From Lachnospiraceae bacterium (GTDB lineage Bacteria > Bacillota > Clostridia > Lachnospirales > Lachnospiraceae): DNA of 52,041 nucleotides. The notes beneath the pieces are model-generated. The model saw nothing but the letters and a program-made list of their open reading frames with translations, was not told the origin of the DNA and made no database searches. A program made the position numbers and the translations under genes. The stretch spans positions 1 to 52,041 of the forward strand of contig JAZULV010000004.1 in the NCBI GenBank assembly GCA_045603305.1, in the 5' to 3' direction. How positions within the stretch are numbered: position 1 is the stretch's first letter; the number at the start of each line of letters is the position of its first letter. Positions 27,213 through 49,887 of the stretch are shown here, piece by piece.

Positions 27213-27878
27213 CTATGCATTAAATGTTATTTTAATTTTATCTGAGAGTTTTTTTTCCTTTATCCACTCTATTATTTCACTTGACAAATCGCCTATTGTC
27301 GCTTTTCCGTCACTAGCCAATCTTAAAAACAGCAATATTTCCGAATCTTGTCCAAGCTCTAAATCATCCAAAATCTGCTCTGCATCCATTTTCCCTTGTT
27401 TCAGATAATTATAACTTTCAACTGAACCATTCCATGTACTTGCTTTTTTTATTTTATTAATTGCAAATGTCGCTCTACTCTCATCTGGCAATATTCCTCT
27501 CACCACATTCAGCAAGCTAAGTATGTTCTCAGTAGTTGCTATATAATACTCTGTCCACTCTTGCCCCAACACAGCATACAATTTCTTTGATTCAGATGAA
27601 ATATATTGTGTTGTTGCATTATTCGCAGCTCCTGATTGAACCACTTTGTCACATGCAACCAAAAAGCCTTTTAACGCACTTACCACATTAGCAGATGGTC
27701 TAAAATCCGAGTTTTCAACTGCAAGATTAACCTCATCAATTATTTGCTTTAAACTTGCAATCAACTGTTTAAAGTTGTAGTCCGCAGTCGCCTGCTTCTT
27801 AGTATCTGCAGAAGCTGTTTCCATTTCGCGAACAGTCTTCATATCAATTATGCATTCATTTAATGTATCAATTAACAT
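27213..27878 (-). CDS. Hypothetical protein (221 aa). It is the last of a three-gene overlapping unit.
   Basis: RBS GGAGGGGA. Its start overlaps the preceding gene by 7 nt. No motif was recognised. Confidence 0.5.
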   Translation of the reverse strand: MLIDTLNECIIDMKTVREMETASADTKKQATADYNFKQLIASLKQIIDEVNLAVENSDFRPSANVVSALKGFLVACDKVVQSGAANNATTQYISSESKKLYAVLGQEWTEYYIATTENILSLLNVVRGILPDESRATFAINKIKKASTWNGSVESYNYLKQGKMDAEQILDDLELGQDSEILLFLRLASDGKATIGDLSSEIIEWIKEKKLSDKIKITFNA

Positions 27879-30800: not shown

Positions 30801-30991
30801 GGATTTAGTACGACTCTTTTGTATATCTGTTCTTCCGTATATGCTTTGGATGCCGCACTCGAATCATATTCCTTTTGCAATTTAATTTGCTTGAAAGGAA
30901 CATGCGTAGCCATAAAATCACCATATGAACTGGTAATAGTATCTATTCTTACTACTTCTGATAATCTCTGTTTTGCAACTTCTGAATTCAT
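27872..30991 (-). CDS. Large P-loop NTPase (about 1039 aa) of unknown family
   Basis: The ORF track opens on TTG. A likely ATG at 30989-30991 follows an AGGGGG RBS. Walker A is VLVIGSSGAGKSHL and the Walker B-like motif is TLLIEDITAF. There is an internal low-complexity linker (KPTQSKPANQPAGQTPTSTTVVKTPAQIAAEQKIQAERAQ) and a long helical C-terminus. Confidence 0.65.
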   Translation of the reverse strand: MNSEVAKQRLSEVVRIDTITSSYGDFMATHVPFKQIKLQKEYDSSAASKAYTEEQIYKRVVLNPKDQHQFVLVIGSSGAGKSHLIRWFDAKIEKQKPDSEVVLFVRRSDNTLKGTIKQLLEKPEVASIQNKDLYERLVNATSTISESKLMNAIYHQFIVEIEDDNGEDIDYLNNADRKRIAPLLNNELFKARMMADDGPIARIYSKVAESSTSDNRDVVPEFLSEDFQVDIAFCDKVQYDGGDKKAVRLLEKLYMEPEVADAVAKYLNSKVDTVIQSCAGLEPGDFEQVFKEIRKELKKQGKSLTLLIEDITAFTGVNEALLNVLTTWHTGDYEQEGMCRISSIIGTTSEYYKSNFRDNYKDRVTQFIVIPDDVFGSSEADLCEFVGRYLNAMSLPKDEVDEWAASDGSGDSLPVHEVKQGNGWDVAITEEGKSLNLFPFSRRAIVYLYNNLLQENYRTPRYLLRDVVEKTVRDALWNFDNFPGFKIINTNINSSLRDAIQKTGASNEQFERMYLFMCIWGDATTDIYQEGEATYISGLSTQVYEDMGFPLINGKKVSGKPTQSKPANQPAGQTPTSTTVVKTPAQIAAEQKIQAERAQLNESLQVIENWIAGGTINVGATTGNVVLISKAREDMCSYLYSAIDWQAEGVSMDNIDKIKRVKDRLVGFDRQKRGADQMFYKLPADRETQAVIEAFLEWNVLGKRSWNFDGADRRVYRVQLWTEKIKKPLIEVITTFENRDIDYFKCAMMAEFYRVILFGSSKATTVEGLKAEHILDNGIRGLGVNSHSDAWNSLLGIITRSENDKINRDTVIQYCNVIQGESRVQVFLDREKFDAMVRTVKNEKLTVESSVLDLVDPVKPRRDARDYLRTILERLDKVRDDELAKAAEIMTTIEENFGTTDVDDEEIEDMVEKIVEFYRTAEDGKLPGKYDQELFDEVKKYSTSTSKAIKEIVAAQKTANALDCILAFSQDPIRKVEKLELLLKKVVADIAKIQAELDVRKAKLGGGSNPTGSQNVFDNEKVTISECSRIIAELEGTVC

Positions 30992-30993
30992 AC

Positions 30994-31788
30994 TCAACCC
31001 CCTATCGTAATATGGGTAACTGTAGTCTCAAGCTCATGTCCTTCACAGGGATATAACGACCATATTTCTTGAGCATCCAGTCTATGCTCTGCTTTGATTA
31101 CTCCTAAATCGTTGAGCATTCTAATCGCATTTGAAAAACCATAATTAAATGTCTTTGTATCAACAGTATTATGCAAGGCGATTTTTGCATACGGCATTAT
31201 CACATCGACAAATTCATCTATTGCATATTCTGTTTTTTTCTTTAACTTGAGGCTTTCAATAATATCTCTGAGAAAAGCGGCTGCATTTGGAAGCAAAATA
31301 CCAGCAGCACCAGCCTGTGAGTCATGCATATACCCAAATCCCAGAAACGCCATCCAGAATCTCCACGCACGCATATCATCCTCTATTACTTTTTCTCCGA
31401 TATTACGTTCCATAACATCACTCATTTTAGAAACACTATTATGGTCAAGCACTTCTGTTCCCATGTCTAAATACCCTTGAGTAACCTTATAGAACAAGCT
31501 ATCTGAAACAAGCTCCAAGTGCATATTGATATAATGCCTCATGTTATCCATGCTTTTTACTGCATCCTTATCTACCGCTAACGAGATTGTATTTTCCTTT
31601 GTATTTATAAGCTGCAATTGTTCTGCAGCAGTCCTTACAATACCAAAATAAGGCGTCTTACCTCCGAGGTTCTGCGGTTCAAGCAATAGTTTTAGTGTAT
31701 TCTCATCCATTGGCTTGCTTGCCACTTCTCTACAAAGTGCATATACTCTTTCAGGTATTGCAGATGTTTGCATTCTATTTCCAAACAT
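30994..31788 (-). CDS. Hypothetical protein (264 aa)
   Basis: ATG with RBS AAAGGATG. Its stop lies 2 nt from the start of the ATPase gene. No motif was recognised. Confidence 0.5.
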   Translation of the reverse strand: MFGNRMQTSAIPERVYALCREVASKPMDENTLKLLLEPQNLGGKTPYFGIVRTAAEQLQLINTKENTISLAVDKDAVKSMDNMRHYINMHLELVSDSLFYKVTQGYLDMGTEVLDHNSVSKMSDVMERNIGEKVIEDDMRAWRFWMAFLGFGYMHDSQAGAAGILLPNAAAFLRDIIESLKLKKKTEYAIDEFVDVIMPYAKIALHNTVDTKTFNYGFSNAIRMLNDLGVIKAEHRLDAQEIWSLYPCEGHELETTVTHITIGG

Positions 31789-31792
31789 AATC

Positions 31793-34294
31793 CTACATCC
31801 TTTCCAAAATATAACTATCTATCTTTGGCCCTTCGACCATAGCAGATATAGGCTTTTGAACCTTTTGAATAAAGTAATCCTCTTTAACTATGTGAATCAA
31901 TTTAATATCTTTATTCTTATACTTTCTCAATGTCATGCAAAACTCATATACTTTATCTGCACCGGAATTATACAATGCAACAACACCTCCCGAGACATAG
32001 TAACCTGACCCCTGCGTGCACAATTCTCGATATTCTTTGATTCCTAAAATCATTACATTACTCTGCTTACTCATATTAAGAATTAATTCAAAATCATTCT
32101 CAATACTTGTATCCTCAACAACTATTACAACAGCGCCAGCACTCACATAACGATTTATTAAGGAATAATCGTCCTCTTCACCAATAACAAGAACCTCATT
32201 TTCGCCCTGGCACAACTTATTTAATTCGGGTGATATTTGCTTCTTAGGCTCTTTTACTGGTAATAGCAGTGGAAATTTACCCTCTTCCATCGTTTCAGGA
32301 TACTTATGTTTTGCACATCCACCGCAATACATAGACACTTTATCGTATGTAGAATAGAACATTTCCGACCAGCAAATCCTATCACTGAAGTCAATACCAT
32401 TTTTTATTCTCTTGATTTCTCTTTCAAAACCTTCCGACTCTCTATCCCTGATTTCATTTATTATTGCCGGAACATCTGCGGATTCATTTCTAAGAGCATC
32501 ATCCAATATGTCAACACGAATCTTATAACATTCATTTTTAGAATCATAAATCATTGACTTAATTGAAATCAGATTGTGTCGACGCAAAAGAAGAATAACA
32601 TACACATTCCACTGAATGTCTATTTCACTCGCATCGTCATCTTCTTTTGTAACATTGTAAATAGGTTTCACAGCTGTATCTAATGTTACCATTCCCTTAA
32701 ACCACAAGGATGTCTTGCTCTTATACATACTAAGCCAACGTCCCCATATCTTATCTGCGCTAAGAACTTTATTCATTCTCTTATGTGCAGAATCAATGTC
32801 ATCAACTGGATTAATACACATTACACTTAAGCTCACTAACCCATCTCGACCGCCTCGACCAAGCTCCTGGTAGTATTGATTGGGTGTATCCGGAATGTAC
32901 AAATGTAGTACAGTTCGTACATCTCCTTTATCTACACCTACACCAAATGCTGAAGTTGCAATGATTAGATCTATTTTATTATTTGTCCAATCCTTTATTA
33001 TTCTCTCTCTCTCAGCAGACTTTGTATCACCGGTAAATGTCTCTAAGTTATTGAGCCCTGCAGAAACAAGAGTCTTTTTTATCTCTTCCGCTTCCTTGGG
33101 CGAATTAATGTAAACAACCATTGGATGTGGCAATTTTTTTACCAGCTCAATCATCTTTCGTTTTTTATCTGAATAGCTCTTGGCTTTCACAAGCAAATAC
33201 CGTGGCTCATGTCTCAGCGCATCACACCTAATCTCAATCCACTTTCCAGTTGTTGTAAACATTTGCTTAAGTTTCATCACGGCTGTTTTTGTATACGTCG
33301 CAGATAACAACACTGTGCGCAACTGCGAATTCATTACTAACAATTCCTTGCGCCATGGTTCGAGACATTGATAATCTACTCTAAAGAAATCACCCCATTC
33401 AATAACTATATGGGCCTCATCAACAATCAGATTTTTCAAATATTTCTTGGCATTAGCCTCATTTATCATATTCACAAATTCAGTATTTCTAATAAGAGCT
33501 TCTGGTGATATAAACAGCAATCTGGCAGTTTCAGCTTTAAGTGCATTTCTAAGAGCATTTTTACGTTCTAATTCAATTCCGCTGTAATAACAGAATATCT
33601 CATTATCCGCATTATGCTTAACATTATTCTTCGCATTACGAACCTGGTCAATTGCTAACGATACCGTAGGTACTATAACAATTGTAAGCCCTTCTTGTTG
33701 ATATGCCATTGTCTGTGTAATTAAGCTTTTCCCACCACCGGTTGGAAGTGAAACTAGAGTAGTGTATCCTTCTGGAGTGTTCAATGCTCCAAATACTGCC
33801 AGCTTCTGCTCTAAAGACTTGAATTCTTTGTAACAAGTCAAATTGTAAATATATGCATTATTACCATAAAATATATCTTTCTGTTTTTCCGCATCTCCTC
33901 CAACTTTCTTTCTCTGAAATGCCTGGTCCACAAAGAAAGAATCAATATAGACTGGCATTTCAAGACTTGCATAGTATAGCCCTTCCGCATTCAACATAAT
34001 GCCATACTCATTTTCTGGTGGTATCATCCCATCGGGAATGGATATTTCATTCTGAAAAACTAACAAATAGTTTCTCAAAGAGCATAAAAAGACATCTTTA
34101 TTTGCAACTCCCGACTTAAACTTTTCGAAATAGATAACCAATCTTTTTGCTGTATTATATCGGAAGCTATCAATTGCAGAGTCCTCCCCAACGAATGTGG
34201 GCATAGCACCACTGGCATTACCATTTATATAATTTTCAACATAGGTTTCTATCACCTTCGTATCCATTATTTCTTCACCATCCAAACAAAGCAC
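31793..34294 (-). CDS. RecQ-like SF2 DEAH helicase with N- and C-terminal extensions
   Basis: Motif I is LPTGGGKSL, motif II is IVDEAHIV (DEAH) and the RecQ-type motif VI is QELGRGGRDG. The C-terminal roughly 350 aa contain Cys pairs (YCGGCAKHK). The track start is GTG. An ATG at about 34267 (MDTKVIETY) overlaps the stop of the upstream SNF2 gene as TAATG and is the likely true start. Confidence 0.75.
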   Translation of the reverse strand: MLCLDGEEIMDTKVIETYVENYINGNASGAMPTFVGEDSAIDSFRYNTAKRLVIYFEKFKSGVANKDVFLCSLRNYLLVFQNEISIPDGMIPPENEYGIMLNAEGLYYASLEMPVYIDSFFVDQAFQRKKVGGDAEKQKDIFYGNNAYIYNLTCYKEFKSLEQKLAVFGALNTPEGYTTLVSLPTGGGKSLITQTMAYQQEGLTIVIVPTVSLAIDQVRNAKNNVKHNADNEIFCYYSGIELERKNALRNALKAETARLLFISPEALIRNTEFVNMINEANAKKYLKNLIVDEAHIVIEWGDFFRVDYQCLEPWRKELLVMNSQLRTVLLSATYTKTAVMKLKQMFTTTGKWIEIRCDALRHEPRYLLVKAKSYSDKKRKMIELVKKLPHPMVVYINSPKEAEEIKKTLVSAGLNNLETFTGDTKSAERERIIKDWTNNKIDLIIATSAFGVGVDKGDVRTVLHLYIPDTPNQYYQELGRGGRDGLVSLSVMCINPVDDIDSAHKRMNKVLSADKIWGRWLSMYKSKTSLWFKGMVTLDTAVKPIYNVTKEDDDASEIDIQWNVYVILLLRRHNLISIKSMIYDSKNECYKIRVDILDDALRNESADVPAIINEIRDRESEGFEREIKRIKNGIDFSDRICWSEMFYSTYDKVSMYCGGCAKHKYPETMEEGKFPLLLPVKEPKKQISPELNKLCQGENEVLVIGEEDDYSLINRYVSAGAVVIVVEDTSIENDFELILNMSKQSNVMILGIKEYRELCTQGSGYYVSGGVVALYNSGADKVYEFCMTLRKYKNKDIKLIHIVKEDYFIQKVQKPISAMVEGPKIDSYILERM

Positions 34295-37200
34295 GCTGAT
34301 TCAAGTCTAACAGTCGGTTTGGTAAGACTTTCTAATACAACGTCATATATTTCTTTCATCCTATCGTAATCTTCAAGTTCCTGATTATAGTATTCAGAAG
34401 TAGCAACCATTGATGTAAGAATTCTGTCCATCTCTGCTTTAGCCTCTGCCGTATGAGATCTTTCTCTAAGAACCTTTAATGCTTTATCCTTACTAACTTT
34501 TCTTGACTTCTTAACTAAATCTACCCATCTTTCCTGTGGATAAACACTTCTAAAATAGTCAATATTAGTGGCTCTATATTGAGAGAAGATATGTAAAAAT
34601 CCTTCATTCTTACTACGTCTTCCAAGATGATCAATATCATCCTTGCTACTCTCAAAATCACGCTGTAGCATCAGATTAAATTCTCTTATAACCTTATCAT
34701 CCGGTATTTCACCCTCAGCACGAATTCTCACAGGTACCTGTACCTGCTCTACCGCTAGATAGTTTCTAAATACACTCAAATAGGAAAGCGGAACTCCTTT
34801 TTCAATCAGCAGCCTTTCATTTGGATACAGTGACCATGTATAAACAAAACCAGTCCAATTTATACTTGACTTCATCGCAAAGGCTGCTGCCTGACCTCTA
34901 CAAGACCTCATTGCATTATCAACAATACAATCGAATATATCATCTCCAGGTGCAAAGAAGTGAATATAGTCGTTTTCAATTGCCTTCTTTCTACTAAAGG
35001 TACCATCAATCGACCGGCTATGATGCATTGTGTTTTTATCCTGCTTGTCCTGTCTTAATTCATGTATCTTACTAATAAACTGATTTTGTTTCTGTGCAAA
35101 ATATGAATCCCAATCCGGAGGAATTAGCAATGAATTTTCTGCAGATCTTGTTGAGAAGGAATTATCACTAAAACTAATAACCTCGTCCTTTTCCTCAACA
35201 TCTCTAAACCCTGCAAGCATTGCCCATTGAAGCATCGCATCCGCAAACATTTTATTTTCATTACGATTATAGTATTTAACCAAACTAATCAATTCCTGAT
35301 TCATCGGTCTATAGATATACGCCGCAGTATCAAAATGCTGTTCTTCACGCACTTCTTCTTTTAGCTTTGCTGATCTTTCAATTACATTCTGTATTTCATT
35401 TGTTAATCCAAATCTGAAATCTTTAATAATAGCTGATACTATCGCATTATTAATATCATTCATAATAATCTCTAATCCACTCAGAGAATGATTAAATATT
35501 TTCAATCCGTTGTTCCAGAACTTAAACAGCTCTTCTTCCAATGTTTCTTCTGCATAAGGAACCACAGATACGATAGGTCGTCCACTTTCTCTTCCCATAC
35601 GATCCAGTCGACCTATTCTCTGTTCTATTGCATTTGCATCCCACGGCAGGTCAATATGAACCACATAGTCCGCGCATTGGAAGTTTCTACCTTCTCCACC
35701 TGATTCATCACAAAGCATGATTGTACAATTCTTATCATTTTGAAATTTGCAAACATTAACCTCTAACTCATCAGCAGACATGCCTCTTCTAAAACAACTG
35801 AATCCGTCCTCTGTATAAAAGTCAGCAAGCATTTCTTCATATACTTCAAAAGTCTCTTTATAATTTGTAAATAACACAACTTTTGAATCAGTTGCATATT
35901 CATCAAGATAGTACATCGTCTGCACTATTCTAGAAGTATGTTCTTCTGGCTCATCCAGAACACCTACAATATTCTCGGCAATGTCCTGTTCATACATTTT
36001 CCATCTATGTAGATTTTCCTTCAGGCTATCCGGTATAACCACTCCATCTGCTTCCAAGAACTTAACCTGCTGTTCAAAAGCCCATGGTGAACTAAAGAAC
36101 GTACCAAAAAGAGGCTTGAATATCTTTTCAAATTTCTCTTCCGTTATTTCCTTTTCAGTAATCCATGTCACTAAATCCTGATATGCACCGTATTCATAAA
36201 AGTTTTTATCCGGATCTAAAGCATACGGAAGCGAAGTTAGCTGACGCTCCGGCAAATCTTCAAGTGTTTCTCTTCTATTTCTGATAATATTCTTTTCAAT
36301 CTGATAATTTTCACACAAGTACGAAATAGCAACTTTGAAATGATGAAGGCCCAAATCATCGTCATCAAAATCAGCCTTTTCATACATTTCTTTAAGCATT
36401 TCATCTCCTACGTTTTTATAAAGCTTTTTAAAACCGCTCAGAATATCCTCGTAGAAATCCTCGCTATCTTCATTATCATGCGGATTTTCTTCTGCCTCTA
36501 AAGAGTCTCTAAAAATCTCATCTAAATCCTCAATATTAGACAACACCATTGCTGCCACTTTAGTAATATTTCCTTGTTTTTCAACCAATTCATCAAATTG
36601 CTCTTTAGTACAAGAATCATACTTTTCAGGAAGAATCAAACGAAGTAAATCCAGATAATCTGTTCTCTTCTGCTGAACTGGCGTAGCACTAAGCAAAAGC
36701 AGATTTGTAGTGTTGCAACTCAGTCTATGGAACGCATCATAATATGCCTTATATCTTAACAATCTGTGTGCTTCATCAATTATTGTAAAATCCCATTGTT
36801 CTTTACATTCTCGATCAGCTGCTGTCTCTAGCTCTGCAAATGTAATAAAGTTATTATTCTCATTTTTTCCTTCATACAAGTCGAACTTTAAGAACAGCTC
36901 CGTTTTCCATTGTCCTAACAATGCCCCTGGAACAACAATCAATGCATTAACATCACTATGTCTTGAGAAATACACCTTCAAAACAGATGCTGCTTCGATA
37001 GTTTTACCCATACCAACCTCGTCAGCTAGCATATATCTGCAAACGTCATCCTGAAGACATCTCATAATAGACTTAAGCTGATGCGGCATTAGAAAAATCT
37101 TGCAACCCGCTAATTCTTTAAATCCCATAATAGAATTATCCAGAACATTCATTGTCTTTGTAACAATACTTCTACCAAACAGCCAGCAAGGATTTTGGAA

Positions 37201-37605
37201 TTCATAACCCTGCAACTGAGAAGCCGGATCCACTTTGCCTACCATGAATGGTGCTATAATTCGATTTTCCGGAACACAAATTAATGTTTTGTCATACTCG
37301 TTCTCAATATAATAATCATAGAATTCATCTTCCTTTTTTACACAGGCTACAACCTTATACTTCTCCTTCTCGTAGAGAACAATCGAGCCCACAAAGAACT
37401 GACATCTTTGAACCATTGATGTTGGAAGAGGCGCAGTTTTTGGGAAGTTGTCATAATACACTCGATAATTAAATGGGTCGTTAAAAACAACCTCGACAGT
37501 ATCTGCGTAACTATCTATTTTAGTAATCTGCCCCATCAAAAAATCACGCGGATTAATCATGTCATAATCAATCGGACAGCGTACATACATCTTCTCTAAT
37601 AACAT
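34267..37605 (-). CDS. SNF2/RAD54-family helicase (1112 aa)
   Basis: SNF2_N motifs LADEVGMGKTIEAASVL and TIIDEAHRL. The helicase-C motif is IDLPWDANAIEQRIGRLDRMGRESG. It has roughly 150-aa N-terminal and roughly 450-aa C-terminal extensions. RBS AAAGGATGAG. Confidence 0.85.
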   Translation of the reverse strand: MLLEKMYVRCPIDYDMINPRDFLMGQITKIDSYADTVEVVFNDPFNYRVYYDNFPKTAPLPTSMVQRCQFFVGSIVLYEKEKYKVVACVKKEDEFYDYYIENEYDKTLICVPENRIIAPFMVGKVDPASQLQGYEFQNPCWLFGRSIVTKTMNVLDNSIMGFKELAGCKIFLMPHQLKSIMRCLQDDVCRYMLADEVGMGKTIEAASVLKVYFSRHSDVNALIVVPGALLGQWKTELFLKFDLYEGKNENNNFITFAELETAADRECKEQWDFTIIDEAHRLLRYKAYYDAFHRLSCNTTNLLLLSATPVQQKRTDYLDLLRLILPEKYDSCTKEQFDELVEKQGNITKVAAMVLSNIEDLDEIFRDSLEAEENPHDNEDSEDFYEDILSGFKKLYKNVGDEMLKEMYEKADFDDDDLGLHHFKVAISYLCENYQIEKNIIRNRRETLEDLPERQLTSLPYALDPDKNFYEYGAYQDLVTWITEKEITEEKFEKIFKPLFGTFFSSPWAFEQQVKFLEADGVVIPDSLKENLHRWKMYEQDIAENIVGVLDEPEEHTSRIVQTMYYLDEYATDSKVVLFTNYKETFEVYEEMLADFYTEDGFSCFRRGMSADELEVNVCKFQNDKNCTIMLCDESGGEGRNFQCADYVVHIDLPWDANAIEQRIGRLDRMGRESGRPIVSVVPYAEETLEEELFKFWNNGLKIFNHSLSGLEIIMNDINNAIVSAIIKDFRFGLTNEIQNVIERSAKLKEEVREEQHFDTAAYIYRPMNQELISLVKYYNRNENKMFADAMLQWAMLAGFRDVEEKDEVISFSDNSFSTRSAENSLLIPPDWDSYFAQKQNQFISKIHELRQDKQDKNTMHHSRSIDGTFSRKKAIENDYIHFFAPGDDIFDCIVDNAMRSCRGQAAAFAMKSSINWTGFVYTWSLYPNERLLIEKGVPLSYLSVFRNYLAVEQVQVPVRIRAEGEIPDDKVIREFNLMLQRDFESSKDDIDHLGRRSKNEGFLHIFSQYRATNIDYFRSVYPQERWVDLVKKSRKVSKDKALKVLRERSHTAEAKAEMDRILTSMVATSEYYNQELEDYDRMKEIYDVVLESLTKPTVRLESACFVWMVKK

Positions 37606-37623
37606 AATCTCATCCTTTCATCG

Positions 37624-40287
37624 TTAGTTTCTTCCATATTTGTATGGTTCCAAACAAATCTCTCTTACACCACAGTACTGACACCACTCATCACAAGATT
37701 TTGCACAGCCAGTTGCATTTACTCTGTTACTGCTTAATCTCGCATCGATTTCACCCTGCGGAACATCCTTAAAATACCCAAAGAAGCTTCCATCACCATT
37801 TCCAAGTTGAAGGTAAATGAACTCCTCACGTTTTTTCATATATATGTCATCCGTAGGACTTATCATTGGAAATGTAGTACCATTTTTAAGCACACTCTTT
37901 TGCAAATAGTTTTTTGCATTCGTAATAATATCCATACGCTCTGTGTGCATATCCTTAACAAACTCAAACTTTCGTTCAAGTTTTTTATACTCATCATTTA
38001 AAGTATCAAGCAACACATCCTCGGTAGCAATCTGTCCCTGCAACACAACTCTCGCCACATTCTCCAACAAAATCTCCAAGTATTTTAACAACAGAAAATG
38101 ATCCCTAAAAACTGCCCTCTTCTCAATTGTAGATTCCAACAAAAATCTGTATTTACATATCTTGTATCGGTAGAAATCATATTGTCCATAATTATTCTCT
38201 GTATTAAGTTCAAGGTGCAAATTTCTTACTGCTTTCGGTAAAGTTCCAGTAGGTTTATCTTTTGGATAAACTTTCTGAGCCTCCAATATCTTCAACAAAT
38301 AGAACATCTCATTCTCTTTATCATCAACATTTTTTACATAGCTTAACTTAAACTTTACCCTGTTAAACTGGAGCCCATATATCAACGCATATCTCTTAAA
38401 ATTCTTATACTCTCTTCTAGATTTAACATAAACCTGGTACTTCCAATCAATTGGATCTTGCGCAACTTCAAAGAAAGTCACGTCCAAAGGCCATGGAAAT
38501 CTATCTCTTCGAGTTACGTTCATATCGTTATCTGAAAGGCAGGCAAAATGATATATTATATCCTTATTCTGTTTTCTACTCTTTAAGATATCGCCATCAA
38601 TCTGCTCAAAATCTCTTACTATCCAATTTGCACTTATCCCCTTTTTAGTCTCCTGTTTCAGATAATAAGCCATTGTCTCTTTCAGCACATCAAAAGAACC
38701 TGTAGCGTCAATCTTATCAACCTCTTCCAAGCGAATGAGCACACGCTTTACTACATCTCTAAATTCATCTTCAATATCTTCCGCTTCAAGTATTCTTGTT
38801 TCAAGGAACTCTTTTATTCTCTTATAGAATTTTTTAAAGTTATTCTCTGTATCCTCAAAATCTGCATAAAATAGCTTTGTAATCTGATCCAGCTGCTCCA
38901 ATGCCGCAACTAATGTATCTATTTCCTCTGAAGTAACGTCAAAGTATACCAATCTACTACCTATGCGTTTTTCAGTTACATCTTTCTCAGCTTTTTTAAT
39001 TCGCTTCTTAAGCTTTCCTAATAGGTCAGTTATCTGATCAATGGTTTCCGCACGTACAAAAAATTCTTTTGTTCTGTTGAAAATAGAATAAAGCTTTCCA
39101 GGAGTTTCTTCTTTTATAAATCCTGAATTCAGACATTCTACAATATCATTCATATTTTCAATCTGAATTCCACCTTCCTCTGGATTCCACATATTCGTAA
39201 TGGAAAGAAAAAAATGTCCAATAGGATATGTCAGGAAATGACGTTCACCAAATTGTCCTGGGTAATAAATCTTGAGGATATTGTTTACGCTGTTATTAGC
39301 CGCATAGAATTGCTCTTGCATATAATAAAGCGTTGATCGCCTTACGTCTTTATCTCTTTCTTGGCGTTTCAATGCGTCCTCAAATACACTAGCAACATAG
39401 CTGGCAAACTCCGTATTATTATCAAACTCCATTACTTCAAAAGGACAATCTTCTTCATTTTCTTCCGGATGTCCCTCTATTAAATTTGCCATTCTATCTG
39501 CTAGCAAATTTCCTTCATAGCTATTCGTCAGCAATGGATTAGGCTTAAACTCATTCGTAAACTGACTTTTGATAGGCATGTCAAATGATGAATATACATC
39601 TATCCATGTCTGATATACATTCTTGTACTGCTGCTGATAATTGAACAAAAGAATTACTCTTTTATACTTTGCCACCAATTCAATAGTTTGAAGAATCATT
39701 GGCGAAAACTGATGTACTCCATGAATCACAATGGTATCTAAATCAACAGCACTTATGTCTGCGTCTTCACGTTCTAACTTCATGCCTTCTCGAATCGCAT
39801 TCTCGATTTCAGCTTCTGAAAAATGTCTTTTCAACGTAAAATCCTGAACCAAATCTGATTTTCTTATTATTCTATAAAGCTCTACAAGGTGGCGTTGTTC
39901 CTCTGTCAACAAATCAGTTCGCATTTCATCAAGGCTCATATCTAGTTCAAACAAAATGCGCAAACTATTACTGAGTTGCTTTCTATTGAATCTTAGCGAC
40001 TGCCTAATCTTTTCTGAATTATCCGTAATGTTCAATCTGGAGATAGCCTCATCTATCACGGTGTATTGCTTTATTTTGCATTCACTGCTTTCCCAATATG
40101 CAAAGAGTCCTTTTACCAAGTTCTCAACAGTAGATACTTTACCTGCTGTCATATCTTCGTACGTTCCCATCATTCCGTTTGCCATAGTTTGTGACACACA
40201 GAAATGAGGGCTATTTTTAATGGAATCCCAGTATAATTCTTTATTTATTTCATATGGATTGCTGTATGTATAAATAGAAAACGGCAT
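37624..40287 (-). CDS. Hypothetical 887-aa protein with a C-terminal Cys cluster that resembles the iron-staple of RecB-family nucleases
   Basis: RBS GGAGGTG. It has no P-loop. A lone Cys lies in HFACLSDNDM about 280 aa before the C-terminus, and the last 30 aa read GCAKSCDEWCQYCGVREIC, which contains C-x2-C-x5-C. That arrangement is used by AddB, Cas4 and Dna2 to frame a PD-(D/E)xK domain. The nuclease motifs themselves could not be confidently located by eye. Confidence 0.5.
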   Translation of the reverse strand: MPFSIYTYSNPYEINKELYWDSIKNSPHFCVSQTMANGMMGTYEDMTAGKVSTVENLVKGLFAYWESSECKIKQYTVIDEAISRLNITDNSEKIRQSLRFNRKQLSNSLRILFELDMSLDEMRTDLLTEEQRHLVELYRIIRKSDLVQDFTLKRHFSEAEIENAIREGMKLEREDADISAVDLDTIVIHGVHQFSPMILQTIELVAKYKRVILLFNYQQQYKNVYQTWIDVYSSFDMPIKSQFTNEFKPNPLLTNSYEGNLLADRMANLIEGHPEENEEDCPFEVMEFDNNTEFASYVASVFEDALKRQERDKDVRRSTLYYMQEQFYAANNSVNNILKIYYPGQFGERHFLTYPIGHFFLSITNMWNPEEGGIQIENMNDIVECLNSGFIKEETPGKLYSIFNRTKEFFVRAETIDQITDLLGKLKKRIKKAEKDVTEKRIGSRLVYFDVTSEEIDTLVAALEQLDQITKLFYADFEDTENNFKKFYKRIKEFLETRILEAEDIEDEFRDVVKRVLIRLEEVDKIDATGSFDVLKETMAYYLKQETKKGISANWIVRDFEQIDGDILKSRKQNKDIIYHFACLSDNDMNVTRRDRFPWPLDVTFFEVAQDPIDWKYQVYVKSRREYKNFKRYALIYGLQFNRVKFKLSYVKNVDDKENEMFYLLKILEAQKVYPKDKPTGTLPKAVRNLHLELNTENNYGQYDFYRYKICKYRFLLESTIEKRAVFRDHFLLLKYLEILLENVARVVLQGQIATEDVLLDTLNDEYKKLERKFEFVKDMHTERMDIITNAKNYLQKSVLKNGTTFPMISPTDDIYMKKREEFIYLQLGNGDGSFFGYFKDVPQGEIDARLSSNRVNATGCAKSCDEWCQYCGVREICLEPYKYGRN

Positions 40288-40290
40288 CCC

Positions 40291-43200
40291 TTACACCTCC
40301 AGAAACTTACTCCAGCTCATATTGGATTTCTTGTCTGTATCCTTCATCCAGATACAATTTCTTATTGCTCTCGTCAATGCGACATAAAGTATTCTTGCCT
40401 CTTCACATATTCTCTGTCCGATTTCTTCCTGAGAATCATAATTTGAATTACAATCTTTTTTATTCTCATCAATCTTAATTGAGTACGCTAACTTCGAATT
40501 ACTATAATTGACATCTGTGTTTGCTTTTTTTAAATTATCAATAGCTTGACCAGTGAAAGGTAATATTACTGTCCCATATTCCAATCCCTTAGCCTTATGC
40601 ACGGTCGTGCAAAGAAATTTGATTCCTGTTTGATCTTCTGCAACAGCTCTTGCCAATTCTTGCTGCTTAGTTAAAATATTAATTTGAATGGAATTAGCAA
40701 TGACTGTTAATGTTAAATAATCAACACTATATGATTTAATTATTTTTTCAATCAAAAGCTCATAATTAGATTTATAGAATCTTTGCTTATCAACATCCTC
40801 GCTATACTTATTCCATGGTTTAAGCGTTTCAAATATCGCCTTCAGAACAACAAGAACTGGATTAGCCTGGACATACGCAACCAACTCATTCCAAGTCTTA
40901 TCCATCCTCGCCATAAAATACGTATCTAAAGCTTCAACCAATTTTTTTGTTTGAGAACTCTTGTCTTCATTCTGAAGTCCTTGATACAAGAGTGGCATAT
41001 CTACATAATTGGATTCCATAAAGTTAACAAGATACACCGGATTATCGGGATTCGTTAACGCCATCAAAAGCTTACAAAAATCAATGGTCGAATCTAACTG
41101 ATACAGGTCACCGCCGACCTTTGTTTCAATTTCAACCTCTTCATCCAACTCCTTGCATCCCTTTATAATTGTTTCAATCTGCCAATTTTCTCTTACAAGA
41201 ATGGCAATTGTCTTTTCCTCTTTGCTAAGCTTTCTCCTTTTCTCTAATTCAATAATTTTAGCTTTTTCTCTCTTGAGTAAACCAAGTAAAACTTCTAACT
41301 GTTCATCATTCTTTCCATGAAATGGAATACATTCAAACAATTCTTCCTCATTAGCACCGCCATTTAAATTACTCACTAAATGATCTGAATCATAAGTATA
41401 TGGAAGCCAAGCACTTGCTCCCATTCCTTGAAAGATTTCATCCATTATTTCAAGTAGTCTGGAATCTGTTCGATAATTCGTATTAATGGTATGCTCTTCC
41501 CATTTATCGGGAGTTGCATTAAGTCTCTTAAATGCACTTATTGTTGCCCCTCTGAAACGATAAATACTTTGCTTCAAGTCGCCAACAACAAACAAATTAC
41601 AGTTCTTACCAATAAGCTGCTGAATCTTCAAAAATGAATCTATTTGCGCATCATCAGTATCCTGAAATTCGTCAATAAAAATATATTTGTAATCTAAATG
41701 TGTTTTCTCCTTGTCTTTCTGGTTAACAACATCATTCAGAATTATCATCGTTTCTCGTAAATCTATCTTATTGCTTTCTTGAATCTTTGTTTCATACTCA
41801 AGTTCCGCAGCAATAATGACCTCCATTATTATTTCATTGAAGAAAGAAAGTAATCCTGGAGCCTGCCCCAACTCGTCTTCCCTAATCTTTTTTATATCAA
41901 TGCTCTTGTTGTAGAGCTGGTTTGAAAATTCTACTAGCATTCTTCTAAACTGATACAAAGGAAGTTTTATTTCATTTATAAAATTAGGATTTTCGGCTTC
42001 CTTCTTTGCAATAAAATCATTGAGATATCTCTCATATATCTGCTCTTTTACGTAGTCTCCAGACGTGATTGCAAAATTATCTCCTAAGCCCATTTGCATG
42101 GATGCTTCCTTAATAATTTCACGAGCAAACTTATGGATAGTTGAAATACGCATGAAGTCGATATCTTCTATATATTTCAAAAATTTCGGATTCGATGTTA
42201 GTACAAAATAATTAATAAACATCTGCTTAAGTCTATTCTTCATGTTGTCAGCTGCATCGTTTGTAAAAGTAACCATCGCAACATCATCAATCAGATTAAC
42301 TGTAGGATTCTCATATTTATTGCAGAGAAAAGCAATTCTTGAAACCATGGAATATGTTTTTCCGGTGCCTGCTCCTGCTCTAACCAAGATGTTTTTTTCC
42401 GGAGAGGCATGTTCAATAAAATACTGCTGAATATTGAAAGGGCTTTTTTCTGCCAATCTCTCCAACAACTGTCTTTCTTCTGGTGTACATTCTCCTTCAT
42501 ATATTGTTGCGGATTCATCAAGTATATCTGCCAAATCTTCTACAACATACAATTCAAAATTAAATATTCTAAATACATTATTCTTTACTGAAAACTCATT
42601 GTCTGCATCTTTTTTTAATTTAAGATTATTCTTCTCTGCTAATATTCCCTTCTCGTTGAGCTCTCCCTCTAAAACATAAAGAATAGAGTCAGCCATATCT
42701 TCAGATGATACGAAAACAACCGTCTTTGTTCCTTTCAAATATCCATCTACAATATCGTGAATTTGCCTCTTCACAAACTTCTTAGTATTAGCTACAACCA
42801 CAGAATAAGGAACCTGATTGCCAAGTTCAAATGGCTTTTTCATCTGAAAATGTGGTTCAAAATGCTGCCTGATTTTTCCCATCAAATCATCATCCATTTC
42901 CGCGTGAGGAATGGATTTACACTGATTATATGCGTTAAGCAACTTGTCACCTAAACGCATAGAATCTGACAAATCTTCCTTGAAAATCGTTAATGTTTCT
43001 TCAGATACAATGTCTAACCTTTTTTCGTAGTATTCCTTCTTTGAAATAAATGGATAACATACTAAATCAAATATTAATGGACTTACATTGTATTTATCAC
43101 TTATCAAGTTTAATAATCCAAATCTGTAGGCTCTAGCTTGCTTCTTAGGCGATTTTTCAGGTTTTTCATATCCCTGAACAATAATCTCATCAACACCGGC

Positions 43201-43407
43201 TACATCAAAAATACTCTCTGCAAGCCAACCCTTCACCTCGATAATGATCATTCCAACATTCTTCATAAGAATGCAGAAATCAAACTCTCTTCCATTTACT
43301 TCACGGCCATTGTATACAATAGCCTCTCCCGGAAGATTATCAGAAAGACTCTCCCATACTTTTCCTTCGCCTTTATATTCAGGTTTTTTATCAATCATTA
43401 TAGCCAT
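40291..43407 (-). CDS. UvrD/PcrA-type SF1 helicase with an N-terminal NERD (nuclease-related) domain
   Basis: The track starts on TTG. An ATG at about 43407 (MAIMIDKKPEY) follows a GGGGGT RBS. The N-terminus (FDFCILMKNVGMIIIEVKGW) is a NERD/PD-(D/E)xK-like EVK motif. Helicase motif I is RAGAGTGKTYSM, motif II is IFIDEFQDTD, and motifs V-VI are CTTVHKAKGLEYGTV ... YVALTRA. Confidence 0.8.
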   Translation of the reverse strand: MAIMIDKKPEYKGEGKVWESLSDNLPGEAIVYNGREVNGREFDFCILMKNVGMIIIEVKGWLAESIFDVAGVDEIIVQGYEKPEKSPKKQARAYRFGLLNLISDKYNVSPLIFDLVCYPFISKKEYYEKRLDIVSEETLTIFKEDLSDSMRLGDKLLNAYNQCKSIPHAEMDDDLMGKIRQHFEPHFQMKKPFELGNQVPYSVVVANTKKFVKRQIHDIVDGYLKGTKTVVFVSSEDMADSILYVLEGELNEKGILAEKNNLKLKKDADNEFSVKNNVFRIFNFELYVVEDLADILDESATIYEGECTPEERQLLERLAEKSPFNIQQYFIEHASPEKNILVRAGAGTGKTYSMVSRIAFLCNKYENPTVNLIDDVAMVTFTNDAADNMKNRLKQMFINYFVLTSNPKFLKYIEDIDFMRISTIHKFAREIIKEASMQMGLGDNFAITSGDYVKEQIYERYLNDFIAKKEAENPNFINEIKLPLYQFRRMLVEFSNQLYNKSIDIKKIREDELGQAPGLLSFFNEIIMEVIIAAELEYETKIQESNKIDLRETMIILNDVVNQKDKEKTHLDYKYIFIDEFQDTDDAQIDSFLKIQQLIGKNCNLFVVGDLKQSIYRFRGATISAFKRLNATPDKWEEHTINTNYRTDSRLLEIMDEIFQGMGASAWLPYTYDSDHLVSNLNGGANEEELFECIPFHGKNDEQLEVLLGLLKREKAKIIELEKRRKLSKEEKTIAILVRENWQIETIIKGCKELDEEVEIETKVGGDLYQLDSTIDFCKLLMALTNPDNPVYLVNFMESNYVDMPLLYQGLQNEDKSSQTKKLVEALDTYFMARMDKTWNELVAYVQANPVLVVLKAIFETLKPWNKYSEDVDKQRFYKSNYELLIEKIIKSYSVDYLTLTVIANSIQINILTKQQELARAVAEDQTGIKFLCTTVHKAKGLEYGTVILPFTGQAIDNLKKANTDVNYSNSKLAYSIKIDENKKDCNSNYDSQEEIGQRICEEARILYVALTRAIRNCIWMKDTDKKSNMSWSKFLEV

Positions 43408-43428
43408 GACGTTTACCCCCAATGTACA

Positions 43429-44247
43429 TTACTCAAAGAAGTCCTCATTAATCTTATACACTGTATAGGTCTGAACCTTTTCAAGTCCAATACCATACTT
43501 AATCATCAATTCTGCGAGCAAATCCCCATCTATAAGTTTCAAACTTTTCTGCTGCTGTTTTTCAGCATAATTTCTTGCTTCTTTTGTAAATGAAGACGTT
43601 GTAATAAACACACCTTTTTGAACATCCTGCATAGCACCAACAAAAGCCTGTAACAACGGTCTTCCAACTGTATTACTACTATCATTTCTTTTTGCCTGAA
43701 TATATATCTTACTTAATCCAAGCTTGTCCTCATATATTACGCCGTCAATACCACCATCATGAGATTTACCTAATACACGACCCGACAATTCATCCGAGCC
43801 ATATCCCATTTCAAGTAACAAATTAACCACTAACCGTTCAAAGAAACTTGGGTGACATTCCATAATATGATCCAAAATTTGTCGTTTCATGTTACTCTTA
43901 TAGAAATGATACGTACGATCTATCTTTTCTTCTGGTAACAAGTCGTCCTCTGACACCAGTTTTTCTTTCTCCTCTTCCTTTTCAGTCGAGTTCTCTTGTC
44001 CTTCCTTTACTAATGCATAAAGATTCCTTGTTCCCTTCTGTCCTACAATATGAAAATATTTAACCGGCGATGCACCAGGGAAGTCCAACCCCTCACAATG
44101 ACAACGTAGTTTCGCATTGACTGCCGCCTCTGGATCCTTAGCCCCAAACTGGTATAAGTTCCTCTCTTTAATTTTTAAATACGCTTCTTTATATGTTAAA
44201 CTCTCATTTTCTTTTAGAACTTCAACCAATGCATCTACAATTCTCAT
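43429..44247 (-). CDS. Mrr-like restriction endonuclease (N-terminal winged-helix plus Mrr_cat PD-(D/E)xK)
   Basis: 272 aa with RBS GAAGGTGA. The catalytic region is GGIDGVIYEDKLGLSKIYIQAKR, a D...QxK Mrr-type core. It lies 11 nt downstream of dndA in the same orientation. Confidence 0.7.
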   Translation of the reverse strand: MRIVDALVEVLKENESLTYKEAYLKIKERNLYQFGAKDPEAAVNAKLRCHCEGLDFPGASPVKYFHIVGQKGTRNLYALVKEGQENSTEKEEEKEKLVSEDDLLPEEKIDRTYHFYKSNMKRQILDHIMECHPSFFERLVVNLLLEMGYGSDELSGRVLGKSHDGGIDGVIYEDKLGLSKIYIQAKRNDSSNTVGRPLLQAFVGAMQDVQKGVFITTSSFTKEARNYAEKQQQKSLKLIDGDLLAELMIKYGIGLEKVQTYTVYKINEDFFE

Positions 44248-44258
44248 ACGTTCACCTT

Positions 44259-45452
44259 CTACACTTCTTCTCTTAATACCTTTATCAGCTGATTAATATC
44301 TGCTTCTGTCGTATGTTTATTAAGCGATATTCTTAATACCTTTGAAACCTTGTCTTTCAACCCCAATGCAGTTATTACATATGACGGTTCTCCTGCACTA
44401 CATGCAGAACCTGCTGATAATGCTATTCTGTCGCTTATATGCTTTATAAACCTTTCATTATTGAAATCCTTCTTATCGACCACTATACTTATAATTCCGG
44501 GCAATCTCTTCTCTGATAGGTTTGTTAATGATATATCTGGTAACGTCTTTAATCCAGCAACAAGCATCTGATCAAACTGTAAAATCTTCTGTTCATTTGT
44601 ATCGAAATCCCTCATTGCAATGTCTGCAGCTTTACCAAAACCTACAATATTATGAACTGCTAAAGTCCCAGCCCTAAACCCATTTTCCTGTTCACCACCA
44701 TGCATAAATGCAGTAATTGGAGGAATACCATACGCATCACTTTTAATAAATGCTGCTCCTATTCCTTTGGGGCCATAAATCTTGTGCGCTGAACACGAAG
44801 CAAAATCCAATCCCATCGCATGAACATCAATAGCCATTTTCCCTATTGCTTGTGTTAGGTCAGAATGAATTGCAATACCCTTCATTGAACACATCTTAGC
44901 AATTCCAGAGACATCACTAATAGTACCAACTTCATTATTCACATAGATAACAGAAACCATTGCGGTGTTATTCTTTAGCGCTTCCTCTATAGTTGTAACA
45001 AGTATTTCTCCCGTTTCAGTAATACCAACAAAAGAAGCTTCATATCCTCTGTCTACAGATTTTCTCCCACCAAACAATGTTACAGTAGGATCATTATTAG
45101 AATACAAATCACCATTAAGGAATTTGCACGTATTCAATGTGGCCTTATGTTCTGCAACAGATGTAATGATATGGTTCTTTCCATCTCCGTAGTAACGTCG
45201 ATAATCCATATAACCTTTAATAATAAAATTTGTGCTTTCTGTTGCACCTGCTGTAAAAATTATTTCTTCTGGATTAGCTCCCAACAGTTTTGCAACCTGA
45301 ACACGTGCATTTTCTACTGCATTATGAGCGTTAACTGCCTTGCAATAATACTTACTTGAAGGATTGCCATATTCTTCTCGGAGATAAGGGAGCATTGCCT
45401 CCAACACTTCCTCATCCACCGGAGAAGTTGCACTATTATCCAAATAAATCAT
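44259..45452 (-). CDS. dndA: Cysteine desulfurase (NifS/IscS-like), the DndA role in DNA phosphorothioation
   Basis: 397 aa starting MIYLDNSATSPVDEEVLEAMLPYLREEYGNPSS. It has the PLP-lysine region and the active-site Cys loop LSAGSACSAG. Its start overlaps the dndE stop (ATGA). Confidence 0.85.
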   Translation of the reverse strand: MIYLDNSATSPVDEEVLEAMLPYLREEYGNPSSKYYCKAVNAHNAVENARVQVAKLLGANPEEIIFTAGATESTNFIIKGYMDYRRYYGDGKNHIITSVAEHKATLNTCKFLNGDLYSNNDPTVTLFGGRKSVDRGYEASFVGITETGEILVTTIEEALKNNTAMVSVIYVNNEVGTISDVSGIAKMCSMKGIAIHSDLTQAIGKMAIDVHAMGLDFASCSAHKIYGPKGIGAAFIKSDAYGIPPITAFMHGGEQENGFRAGTLAVHNIVGFGKAADIAMRDFDTNEQKILQFDQMLVAGLKTLPDISLTNLSEKRLPGIISIVVDKKDFNNERFIKHISDRIALSAGSACSAGEPSYVITALGLKDKVSKVLRISLNKHTTEADINQLIKVLREEV

Positions 45453-45829
45453 ACAGTATCACCTACTCCTAATACTTGAAGTATGTATTTATCCATGCTT
45501 CCAGCATGATTATACATATCAAGTAGTAATTCACTACCCCTATCAATGTGTGCCTTAACATACTTCGGAAAAAATTCTTCCTCCGGCAAATATCTTCCTT
45601 CAACTTCTTCAATCAAAACCTTGAAATATGTTTCATTATCACCTGTAATTGTCTGCCTGTTAAGATCCAATCCGTCTGAATCAGATTCATAATCTGCAAC
45701 TGAAGAATTCTCTTTCAAAGACCACGCTATTGCATGTTTTACCAAAGTATATGGTTTATAGTTTGTTCTATTTTCTAACTCTTGGAATATTTCCTGAGTT
45801 CTCTTTGATGTTTTTAATCTGAATATCAT
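45449..45829 (-). CDS. dndE: DndE-like small protein
   Basis: 126 aa starting MIFRLKTSKRTQEIFQELENRTNYKPYTLVKHAIAWSL. Its size and its position between dndD and the desulfurase fit DndE. Confidence 0.7.
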   Translation of the reverse strand: MIFRLKTSKRTQEIFQELENRTNYKPYTLVKHAIAWSLKENSSVADYESDSDGLDLNRQTITGDNETYFKVLIEEVEGRYLPEEEFFPKYVKAHIDRGSELLLDMYNHAGSMDKYILQVLGVGDTV

Positions 45830-45832
45830 TGC

Positions 45833-49355: not shown

Positions 49356-49689
49356 CGTTACTACCTCGATGCTGAGCGACTTGGCTTAGTAGTCCAAGAC
49401 TCAACTCTTTCCCTTCGTCATCCATTTGCTTTATATAACTTAATATTTTGCGTTCAACATCATCTGCATCATCATTAAAAAATTCTCTTCCCACTAATTG
49501 ATCAAGTGAAATATTATATATGTCCGCAATCTTTTTAAGCTGTTCAATATCTGGGGTCGTAACTCCCCTCTCAATGTTGCTTATCACTTGCTGTGATACA
49601 TTCAGCCTTTCAGCCAGCTCCATTTGCTTAAGTTTTTTGCTTTTTCTTATTTCTGCTAATCGTTTTCCTATAGTCTGCATATCTTTCAT
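49342..49689 (-). CDS. XRE-family HTH regulator overlapping the start of dndC. It is the likely regulator of the array and stands in place of dndB.
   Basis: 115 aa with the HTH IGKRLAEIRKSKKLKQMELAERLNVSQQVISNIERG. Its 3' end overlaps dndC by 14 nt. Confidence 0.75.
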   Translation of the reverse strand: MKDMQTIGKRLAEIRKSKKLKQMELAERLNVSQQVISNIERGVTTPDIEQLKKIADIYNISLDQLVGREFFNDDADDVERKILSYIKQMDDEGKELSLGLLSQVAQHRGSNDGNE

Positions 49690-49887
49690 TCTCCATCAAA
49701 ACAAAGGATACAATAGGGCATATTTTACCCAGTTTGCACAGTTATACCGAATACAAATTATACACGAAAAGCTCAATAAATACAACAAAATTACGTATAT
49801 TCGCCCTTGACCAACAATATTATTGTATTTTATAATATATACAAACTTTTTGTTAGTCGTTACAAAGAAAAGGAGGATAAAACAAAA

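Follow-up and report, generated by a model that had tools for sequence, protein, structure and literature searches.

A HARE-HTH-like Mrr-type nuclease of dnd loci, a candidate accessory restriction enzyme tied to DNA phosphorothioation

Many dnd clusters are devoid of DndFGH, and the restriction that accompanies their phosphorothioate (PT) modification is only partly explained (PbeABCD, DndI). DndI was shown experimentally to be a PT-sensing nickase that pairs with IscS-DndBCDE; it is the established case of a single-protein PT-sensing effector that spares self DNA, and SspE is described in the same paper (PMC11662687). In addition, an in silico study reported three types of endonuclease genes sited immediately downstream of those for Dnd modification, one of which encodes a HARE-HTH (helix-turn-helix) domain joined to a restriction endonuclease (REase), and proposed for this HARE-HTH+REase architecture a modification-discriminating role in restriction (Rakesh, Aravind and Krishnan, Nucleic Acids Research (NAR) 2024; PMC10853773). 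Here we analyse such a gene in a 52,041-nt stretch of a Lachnospiraceae bacterium genome (contig JAZULV010000004.1, positions 1 to 52,041, hereafter the window), where a preliminary description had presented an Mrr-type gene within a dnd transcript as a paradox. The gene neighbourhood was in fact already published as an in silico prediction (PMC10853773). What is added here is the optional presence of the gene, its varying position, the swapping of its partners and its gene-specific decay, together with a DndI homologue in the same operon and a recurrent Dnd + Dpd-like composite around the gene. Collected loci and proteins are designated by L and P numbers.

The nuclease gene and its two predicted domains

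The gene starts with ATG and encodes 272 amino acids (aa). It is found exactly where the preliminary description had placed it, 11 nt after dndA on the minus strand: the TAG stop codon of dndA occupies 44259-44261 and the ATG of the nuclease gene 44245-44247. The features of the gene are listed below (ORF, open reading frame; pLDDT, predicted local distance difference test).

43429..44247, minus strand: 272-aa nuclease gene (HARE-HTH-like winged helix + Mrr_cat), ATG-started ORF
44248..44258, minus strand: dndA-Mrr spacer of 11 nt, AAGGTGAACGT, containing a Shine-Dalgarno-like AAGGTGA (sequence reading)
43999..44247, minus strand: codons 1-83, N-terminal HARE-HTH-like winged helix, putative reader domain
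43936..43998, minus strand: codons 84-104, acidic low-complexity linker, predicted to be disordered at residues 84-96 (pLDDT <50)
43432..43935, minus strand: codons 105-272, long helix and Mrr_cat PD-(D/E)xK nuclease domain (profile, alignment, Foldseek)
43744-43746, 43696-43698 and 43690-43692, minus strand: codons of D168, Q184 and K186, which with E137 are the predicted catalytic residues

Residues 130-248 match the Pfam family Mrr_cat (PF04471) with E=5.1e-33 and 114 bits against a cut-off of 21. The D...QxK core, which the preliminary description had judged intact from the motifs GGIDGV...IQAKR, is complete: DGGIDGV holds D168, IQAKR holds Q184 and K186, and all three are conserved in 51 homologues from several phyla. 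In this alignment E137, D164, G166, D168 and K186 are invariant and Q184 is nearly so, its sole replacement being E. Among solved structures, a profile of the 51 homologues matched only AspBHI and MspJI significantly, and D168, Q184 and K186 fall on D334, Q355 and K357, the D-Q-x-K residues of MspJI (counted along the alignment), which we take to be catalytic in that enzyme. The same two enzymes were the best matches when the AlphaFold model of the 272-aa protein (mean pLDDT 81) was submitted to Foldseek, which also matched AF1548 and pointed to a restriction-endonuclease-like fold. Residues 105-272 share 42-48% identity with many plasmid genes labelled 'restriction endonuclease' and 41.8% with an unannotated region in two E. 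coli records, presumably the mrr gene. No NCBIfam model matches the 272-aa protein, and PADLOC recognises its C-terminal half only, through the generic mREase_IV, which covers residues 104-272 only, and PDC-S02.

The N-terminal 83 residues are predicted with confidence to fold as a winged helix (pLDDT 94.5). Mrr_N (PF14338) gave no match, nor did it when the N-terminus was searched by itself with E values of up to 10 allowed. Pfam HARE-HTH is sub-threshold on the window protein (16.6 bits vs 25.9) and passes threshold in homologues from two loci (L050, 29.6 bits; L061, 31 bits), while PF05066 is precomputed on the homologues P0113, P0116, P0142 and P0184-186; it is through these homologues that the window protein can putatively be assigned to HARE-HTH. 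A signature, L31-Y32-x-F34-G35-A-K-D-P39 ... R48-C-H50-C in the window protein, recurs as LYxF(G/P/N)AxxP...R(R/C)HC in almost all full-length relatives collected, and its Y32, F34 and P39 form a conserved patch of aromatics and proline where the recognition helix begins. No likeness to the sulphur-binding domain (SBD) beyond the generic fold was found in the winged helix. The family of this N-terminal domain is small, with 285 cluster representatives among 1.84 billion at E<=0.001. At intermediate distance the winged helix has diverged faster than the nuclease domain (dN, the nonsynonymous divergence, 0.30 vs 0.086; L006, L035), which would suit changing targets or an arms race, and the linker varies in length and sequence across the alignment. 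Taken together, we predict that the protein is an active two-domain nuclease in which the winged helix reads DNA and the Mrr-type domain cuts it. The preliminary description had reasoned that an enzyme of the Mrr type is modification-dependent; the presence of the Mrr_cat domain bears out the type, while the deduction, drawn from the catalytic domain alone, is weaker than it was presented, and the reader is not Mrr_N. In E. coli Mrr, MspJI and AspBHI, modification dependence comes from a separate reader domain.

The same winged-helix subfamily was also seen in other fusions, namely with a TIR domain (384 aa, two copies), with Mrr_N and a McrB-like AAA_5 domain (759 aa) and with Mrr_cat and an SF2 helicase (653 aa), and as three to four matched stretches within proteins of 1488-1776 aa (P0203, P0295, P0264, P0198, P0255 for the fusion and multicopy proteins).

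Against close relatives the nuclease gene has a dN/dS ratio (nonsynonymous to synonymous divergence) of 0.02-0.05 in both domains, equal to that of the neighbouring genes, with dS saturated. As judged from its ORF, the Mrr_cat match, the conserved motifs and dN/dS, the gene is real, intact and under purifying selection. A recombination breakpoint, considered on the basis of the relative dN of the Mrr gene and its neighbours, was dropped, dS being saturated and the ratios inconsistent between locus groups; the change of gene content to DndFG in L027 and L040 is relied on instead. The start of the NERD+UvrD helicase gene lies 6-21 nt past the Mrr stop codon, depending on the choice of start codon, and in other loci of the window type the gaps between dndA and the Mrr gene measure 12-19 nt in tblastn alignments. 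A scan of 40000-50200 revealed no terminator-like site in either gap flanking the Mrr gene, with 8 such sites across the region vs 3.9 +/- 2.1 expected, and promoter-like sites were no more frequent there than in shuffles. The promoter and terminator scans leave the operon status neither proven nor broken.

Near-exclusive occurrence in dnd loci, change of partners and loss

The subfamily is near-exclusive to dnd loci across phyla. In the species genomes, 10 of 12 loci, from Clostridia/Lachnospiraceae, have the order dndCDEA-Mrr-NERD/UvrD-p887-DpdE-DpdF, which is preserved also in loci whose helicases share no more than about 40% identity. A homologue with 35% identity occurs in Pseudoalteromonas (L012), where dndBCDE are divergent from dndA and the dndA stop overlaps the Mrr start by 4 nt; this locus is without the helicase block, and a dnd-associated methyltransferase-like gene lies downstream in convergent orientation. 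The overlap of dndA with the Mrr gene is found elsewhere in Proteobacteria, with 4 nt in L015 and 14 nt in L019. More distant homologues, with 37-70% identity to the Pseudoalteromonas protein, were in dnd or dndFGH loci in all seven cases: three after dndA (Vibrio, Trabulsiella and a metagenome), two after dndE in clusters without dndA, one within a larger dndCDE...dndB cluster and one (Alteromonas) divergent from dndFGH.

The metagenome scan compared 54 loci whose nuclease carries the N-terminal domain with 26 generic Mrr loci that match in the catalytic half only (41-51% identity). Dnd modification, Dpd-like or DndF/DndG genes were present in the available flanks of 50/54 full-length loci vs 0/26 generic Mrr loci, at least 5 kb being available on one side in 12 of these 26. 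The 54 loci are not independent, many being near-identical; they cover at least seven different arrangements. No dnd genes were found near a control with an Mrr_N reader. In the plasmid collection a single full-length relative was detected (Massilia), the remaining matches being of the generic catalytic domain only. The preliminary description had allowed for the case that homologues never adjoin dnd genes elsewhere; the counts from the metagenomes (50/54) and from the distant homologues (7/7) speak to the contrary.

Both the position and the partners of the gene vary. It follows dndA in the window, in L001-L007 and in many metagenomic loci; it precedes dndC, with overlapping reading frames, in L051-L054; it sits inside the Dpd-like helicase block, with the 887-aa protein on one side and DpdE on the other, in L046-L050, L064 and L102, and after the 221-aa protein, at the end of the block, in L072. 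Its downstream partner in most loci is the NERD/UvrD block. In L027, whose nuclease is 89% identical to that of the window, and in L040, this block is replaced by DndF-DndG directly downstream. Nuclease genes without a Dpd-like block were recorded in L012, L014-L019 and L027, no helicase block at all accompanies the nuclease in L012, L014-L016, L018 and L019, and in the proteobacterial loci neither the block nor DndF-DndG follows the gene. Conversely, L103, L104 and L105, three loci collected through their relatives of the DpdH-like protein, hold dndBCDEA and a complete block and, over 23 kb, nowhere an Mrr-like sequence. Among the species genomes, lesions are confined to the Mrr gene in 3 of 11 loci with intact neighbours, as frameshifts (L009, L010) or as a deletion within the gene by which the catalytic aspartate is lost (L011); these are metagenome-assembled genomes in which sequencing error is possible, and all other genes there align over their full length. 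Lastly, the Dpd family models of PADLOC and NCBIfam do not match the nuclease, and they match its neighbours as DpdE, DpdF and DpdH. Because its partner and position vary, sister loci do without it and lesions are specific to it, the nuclease is an optional accessory and not a core subunit.

Two candidate observations were set aside. L046-L050 and L064 had appeared to be dnd-less Dpd-like blocks with an Mrr gene, an interpretation rejected since their relative L102 has a convergent dndBCDEA past the block. A truncated copy in L008 was not counted as a gene-specific lesion, being the remnant of an island deletion that is followed by housekeeping genes.

Possible roles of the nuclease

The tie to dnd loci is near-exclusive across phyla and persists while the partners change, which argues that the enzyme needs the PT system and does not merely share its islands. 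Our preferred reading, to which we would give somewhat less than an even chance, is that the nuclease may be a PT-tied accessory enzyme that relies on this system to tell self from non-self. Incoming DNA without the PT marks of the host would most likely be attacked, a direction of PT dependence that we infer, and PT-marked host DNA would be spared or would release the enzyme, as for DndI and SspE. This is the simplest form of dependence, with PT as the mark of self. To what the DndI homologue and the helicases of the Dpd-like block do, the nuclease would thereby add double-strand cutting. PT marking of host DNA is partial. Such partial marking would impose an autoimmunity cost, which in turn would fit the dispensability of the gene and its repeated loss. 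The preliminary description had proposed, as one of two possibilities, a PT-sensing module of the effector block: near-exclusive occurrence in dnd loci upholds the link to the PT system, while the assignment to the block is not supported, given blocks without Mrr, Mrr genes without block, and a DndI homologue in the operon.

Several points weigh against this reading. The operon already has a PT sensor in the form of the full-length DndI homologue, and the winged helix bears no specific likeness to known PT-binding sites. HARE-HTH was proposed to read modifications of bases and not of the backbone (PMC11037411), and a 2026 survey lists HARE-HTH+REase fusions also among auxiliary effectors of the BREX type (PMC12839542). 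It is not obvious how a 272-aa, ATP-independent enzyme would tolerate partial PT marking. Two copies stand apart from dnd genes, one in L061, without dnd-type genes within 10 kb on either side, and a solo copy on the Massilia plasmid (L021), between insertion sequence (IS) elements and with no dnd gene within ~10-12 kb. Moreover, the members of the subfamily are known from sequence alone. A bolder extension of the preferred reading, which we regard as possible and rather doubtful, is that PT status would be read in a third, independent way by the LYxFGAxxP...RxHC winged helix, next to the SBD of ScoMcrA and the hydrophobic cavity used by DndI and SspE. In that case the enzyme would work on its own as a PT-gated restriction nuclease, pluggable into any Dnd locus, and would supply the missing 'R' of the many dnd clusters without DndFGH.

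Other roles were weighed against a PT-tied accessory nuclease. The other possibility raised by the preliminary description was an enzyme that ignores PT and acts on foreign modified DNA; in the form weighed here, it would be an autonomous type IV enzyme that reads modified bases (methyl-, hydroxymethyl- or glycosyl-) on phage DNA, as a second line within the dnd island against phages that escape PT-based restriction. The identity of the catalytic domain to generic Mrr-family enzymes (42-48%) and to the presumed E. coli mrr (41.8%) is in its favour, as are the modification dependence of MspJI and AspBHI, the best solved relatives, the proposal of HARE-HTH as a modified-base reader (PMC11037411, PMC10853773) and the fact that the gene is optional, often lost and sometimes solo. 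However, a PT-indifferent enzyme would be expected to be dispersed among defence islands in the manner of generic Mrr, whereas the subfamily has a dnd/dndFGH context in 50/54 metagenomic loci and 7/7 distant homologues vs 0/26 controls, and in Proteobacteria its frame even overlaps dndA (4 nt in L012 and L015, 14 nt in L019). We consequently favour the tie to the PT system and hold an unrelated type IV enzyme to be unlikely. Still less probable is a PT-dependent nuclease of the ScoMcrA kind, which would bind PT and cut nearby, its target being foreign PT in sequence contexts other than those of the host. The SBD-SRA-HNH enzymes, the class of the experimentally PT-dependent ScoMcrA, do lie immediately downstream of genes for Dnd modification as well (PMC10853773), which gives a PT-binding nuclease beside dnd genes a precedent, and the patch Y32, F34, P39 at the start of the recognition helix could be put to such use; co-transcription with PT-making enzymes would nevertheless be self-destructive unless discrimination of context were strict, and the protein has no SBD-like match. 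Hosts from different phyla differ in their PT motifs. Since the winged-helix signature is conserved across these phyla, a reading of sequence context becomes less likely.

About as improbable as the ScoMcrA kind is a backup or suicide effector, that is, an unspecific nuclease that stays inactive as long as the main system works and, once this system fails or a phage inhibits it, degrades DNA indiscriminately (abortive infection). HARE-HTH+REase has been grouped with auxiliary and backup effectors of BREX and related systems (PMC12839542), and the gene is optional and repeatedly inactivated; yet the in silico study places backup nucleases at the edges of loci and in many cases on the other strand, whereas this class lies directly downstream of the modification genes (PMC10853773), and the protein has no sensor or regulatory domain beyond the winged helix. 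A core subunit of the Dpd-like helicase block, which would supply the PT-sensing or cutting head delivered by the helicases, might be imagined from the loci in which the gene stands inside the block (L046-L050, L064, L102) or at its end (L072). This role is very improbable and largely refuted by the complete blocks with dndBCDEA and no Mrr-like sequence (L103, L104, L105). Nucleases accompanied by DndFG (L027, L040) or devoid of the block (L012, L014-L016, L018, L019) also speak against it, as does the lack of any match of a Dpd family model to the nuclease. We give least credit of all to a helper of PT installation or of its regulation, such as a nickase that prepares DNA for sulphur insertion. 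The gene is tight against dndA, with overlapping frames in Proteobacteria, and DndE has been linked to nicked DNA (review PMC12707154); against this, many dnd clusters, experimentally active ones included, are without the nuclease, the gene is absent from L103-L105, and L009-L011 hold broken copies beside intact dnd genes.

With a PT-tied accessory nuclease as the preferred reading, the subfamily offers, for dnd loci without DndFGH, a restriction candidate that is small, looks soluble and consists of a single gene. If the enzyme does read PT, its winged helix would represent a PT-reader fold not seen before and might serve as a PT-mapping reagent; if it is indifferent to PT, it would exemplify the specific recruitment of a type IV enzyme to PT islands.

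Surrounding genes and comparison with known systems

The neighbouring genes of the operon, all on the minus strand, are listed in the order of transcription, which runs from the HTH gene through dndC, dndD, dndE, dndA, the Mrr gene and the NERD+UvrD gene to the DndI homologue in a close-packed array.

49342-49689, minus strand: C-protein-like HTH (Pfam, PADLOC)
47964-49355, minus strand: dndC (Pfam, PADLOC)
45833-47983, minus strand: dndD (Pfam, PADLOC)
45449-45829, minus strand: dndE (Pfam, PADLOC)
44259..45452, minus strand: dndA, cysteine desulfurase, directly upstream of the Mrr gene (PADLOC DndA, 1.6e-119)
27213..43422, minus strand: Dpd-like helicase block, downstream of the nuclease gene, with the seven genes that follow
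40291-43422, minus strand: NERD+UvrD helicase
37624-40287, minus strand: 887-aa protein without family match
34267-37605, minus strand: DpdE-like SNF2
31793-34294, minus strand: DpdF-like helicase
30994-31788, minus strand: 264-aa protein at the DpdG position
27872-30997, minus strand: DpdH-like ATPase
27213-27878, minus strand: 221-aa protein
25393-27186, minus strand: DndI homologue, 597 aa, DUF262 + DUF1524, last gene of the array (PDB 9jfl, E=2.7e-72, full length)

The product of dndA also matches NCBIfam TIGR03235 (1.8e-106), with a score under the curated cut-off of that model. Pfam DpdG matches the homologues of the 264-aa protein, with weak matches in L102 and L103 and an unmarked one in L104. 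The DndI homologue is recognised by PADLOC as 'Orf5' (4.8e-185), has GmrSD_N and GmrSD_C domains, and contains the DGQQR motif and Y25. The first gene of the operon encodes an XRE-type HTH of 115 aa and runs at its end into the start of dndC. Its product, which matches PADLOC 'Control_protein', HTH_VI and capH, stands in for dndB and may control establishment in the manner of a C protein. Divergent from the operon, at 49807-50889 on the plus strand, lies a gene for a second protein resembling phosphoadenosine phosphosulphate (PAPS) reductase, of 360 aa and, as judged by eye, with cysteine pairs (CxxC ... CxxC) near its N-terminus. This gene is kept at the same place in all loci of the window type, and its relatives, with 26-28% identity, adjoin Mrr or dndB genes in other dnd loci (both kinds together recorded in L001-L006, L023-L036, L051-L054, L060 and L065).

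In several loci an extra gene of ~2 kb is found between dndE and dndA (L002, at 6822-8795, L004, L024, L025, L027, L028, L045), the product of which in L002 has 657 aa, a GmrSD_N (DUF262) domain and no solved relative; the window is devoid of it, dndE and dndA overlapping there. In L032 the NERD+UvrD gene is interrupted by an insertion of ~2.1 kb (12343-14510). As for the proteobacterial loci, the methyltransferase gene of L012, convergent to the Mrr gene, encodes a 'DNA phosphorothioation-associated putative methyltransferase' (TIGR04096, 7.5e-173), a relative of which was detected by tblastn in the same position in L014. The proteobacterial dndA-Mrr loci also share a conserved gene pair. One product, of 557-577 aa, contains a DGQHR motif and matches DndB only marginally (E=0.12); the other, of ~310 aa, has an HNH match in L012 and L014 only. 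The observations on the methyltransferase gene and the pair refer to 1058-3672 and 10693-12816 in L012 and to L014, L015 and L019.

A recurrent composite combines Dnd phosphorothioation genes with a Dpd-type block of seven genes, and also with DndI; the Mrr gene may be present or absent. The block comprises NERD+UvrD, a protein of ~890-970 aa, a DpdE-like SNF2, DpdF-like and DpdG-like proteins, a DpdH-like ATPase and a protein of ~220 aa, and lies on the same strand as dnd(B)CDEA or is convergent to it. The composite was recorded in the window (25393-49689, minus strand), in L001-L007, in L023-L045 and in L102-L105. No 7-deazaguanine genes are in view at these loci, and no description of a hybrid of Dnd with DpdE/F/G/H was found in the searchable literature.

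Among the described systems, the closest are the HARE-HTH+REase genes of the in silico study, which share with the window gene the PD-(D/E)xK domain and, putatively, the HARE-HTH reader fused to it, as well as the position and the proposed role, both being known solely as sequences; they differ in that the main text of that study mentions neither UvrD, BrxC, DUF262, GmrSD nor Dpd, and is thus silent on the Dpd-like block, the DndI homologue, the variable position, the loci without Mrr and the lesions (PMC10853773). E. coli Mrr has in common with the window protein a reader domain followed by a C-terminal Mrr_cat with the D...QxK core, while the reader of the window protein is not Mrr_N and its context is that of dnd loci instead of the generic Mrr contexts. 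E. coli Mrr is a methylation-dependent enzyme of type IV. For the nuclease domain, sequence profile and Foldseek both give MspJI and AspBHI (PDB 4f0p, 4oc8) as best solved relatives, with aligned D-Q/E-x-K positions. Their Mrr-like region is near the C-terminus (residues ~238-416), and the window protein differs from them in having a winged helix as its reader. The N-terminal readers of MspJI and AspBHI are SRA-like, base-flipping domains that bind 5-methylcytosine.

ScoMcrA and SprMcrA, the PT-dependent SBD-SRA-HNH enzymes, resemble the window protein in combining a nuclease with a reader of the winged-helix type, and their class too is found beside Dnd modification genes, whereas their nuclease is HNH in place of PD-(D/E)xK and the window protein has no SBD. 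DndI and SspE, PT-sensing nickases with DUF262 and DUF1524, are likewise single-polypeptide effectors paired with PT modules, and they may be joined to dnd loci or taken out of them (PMC11662687); their folds are unrelated to that of the window protein, they have an NTPase switch, and DUF262 and DUF1524 are absent from the 272-aa protein. The nuclease is thus outside the E. coli Mrr type, the ScoMcrA type, the Dpd families and the DndI/SspE type.

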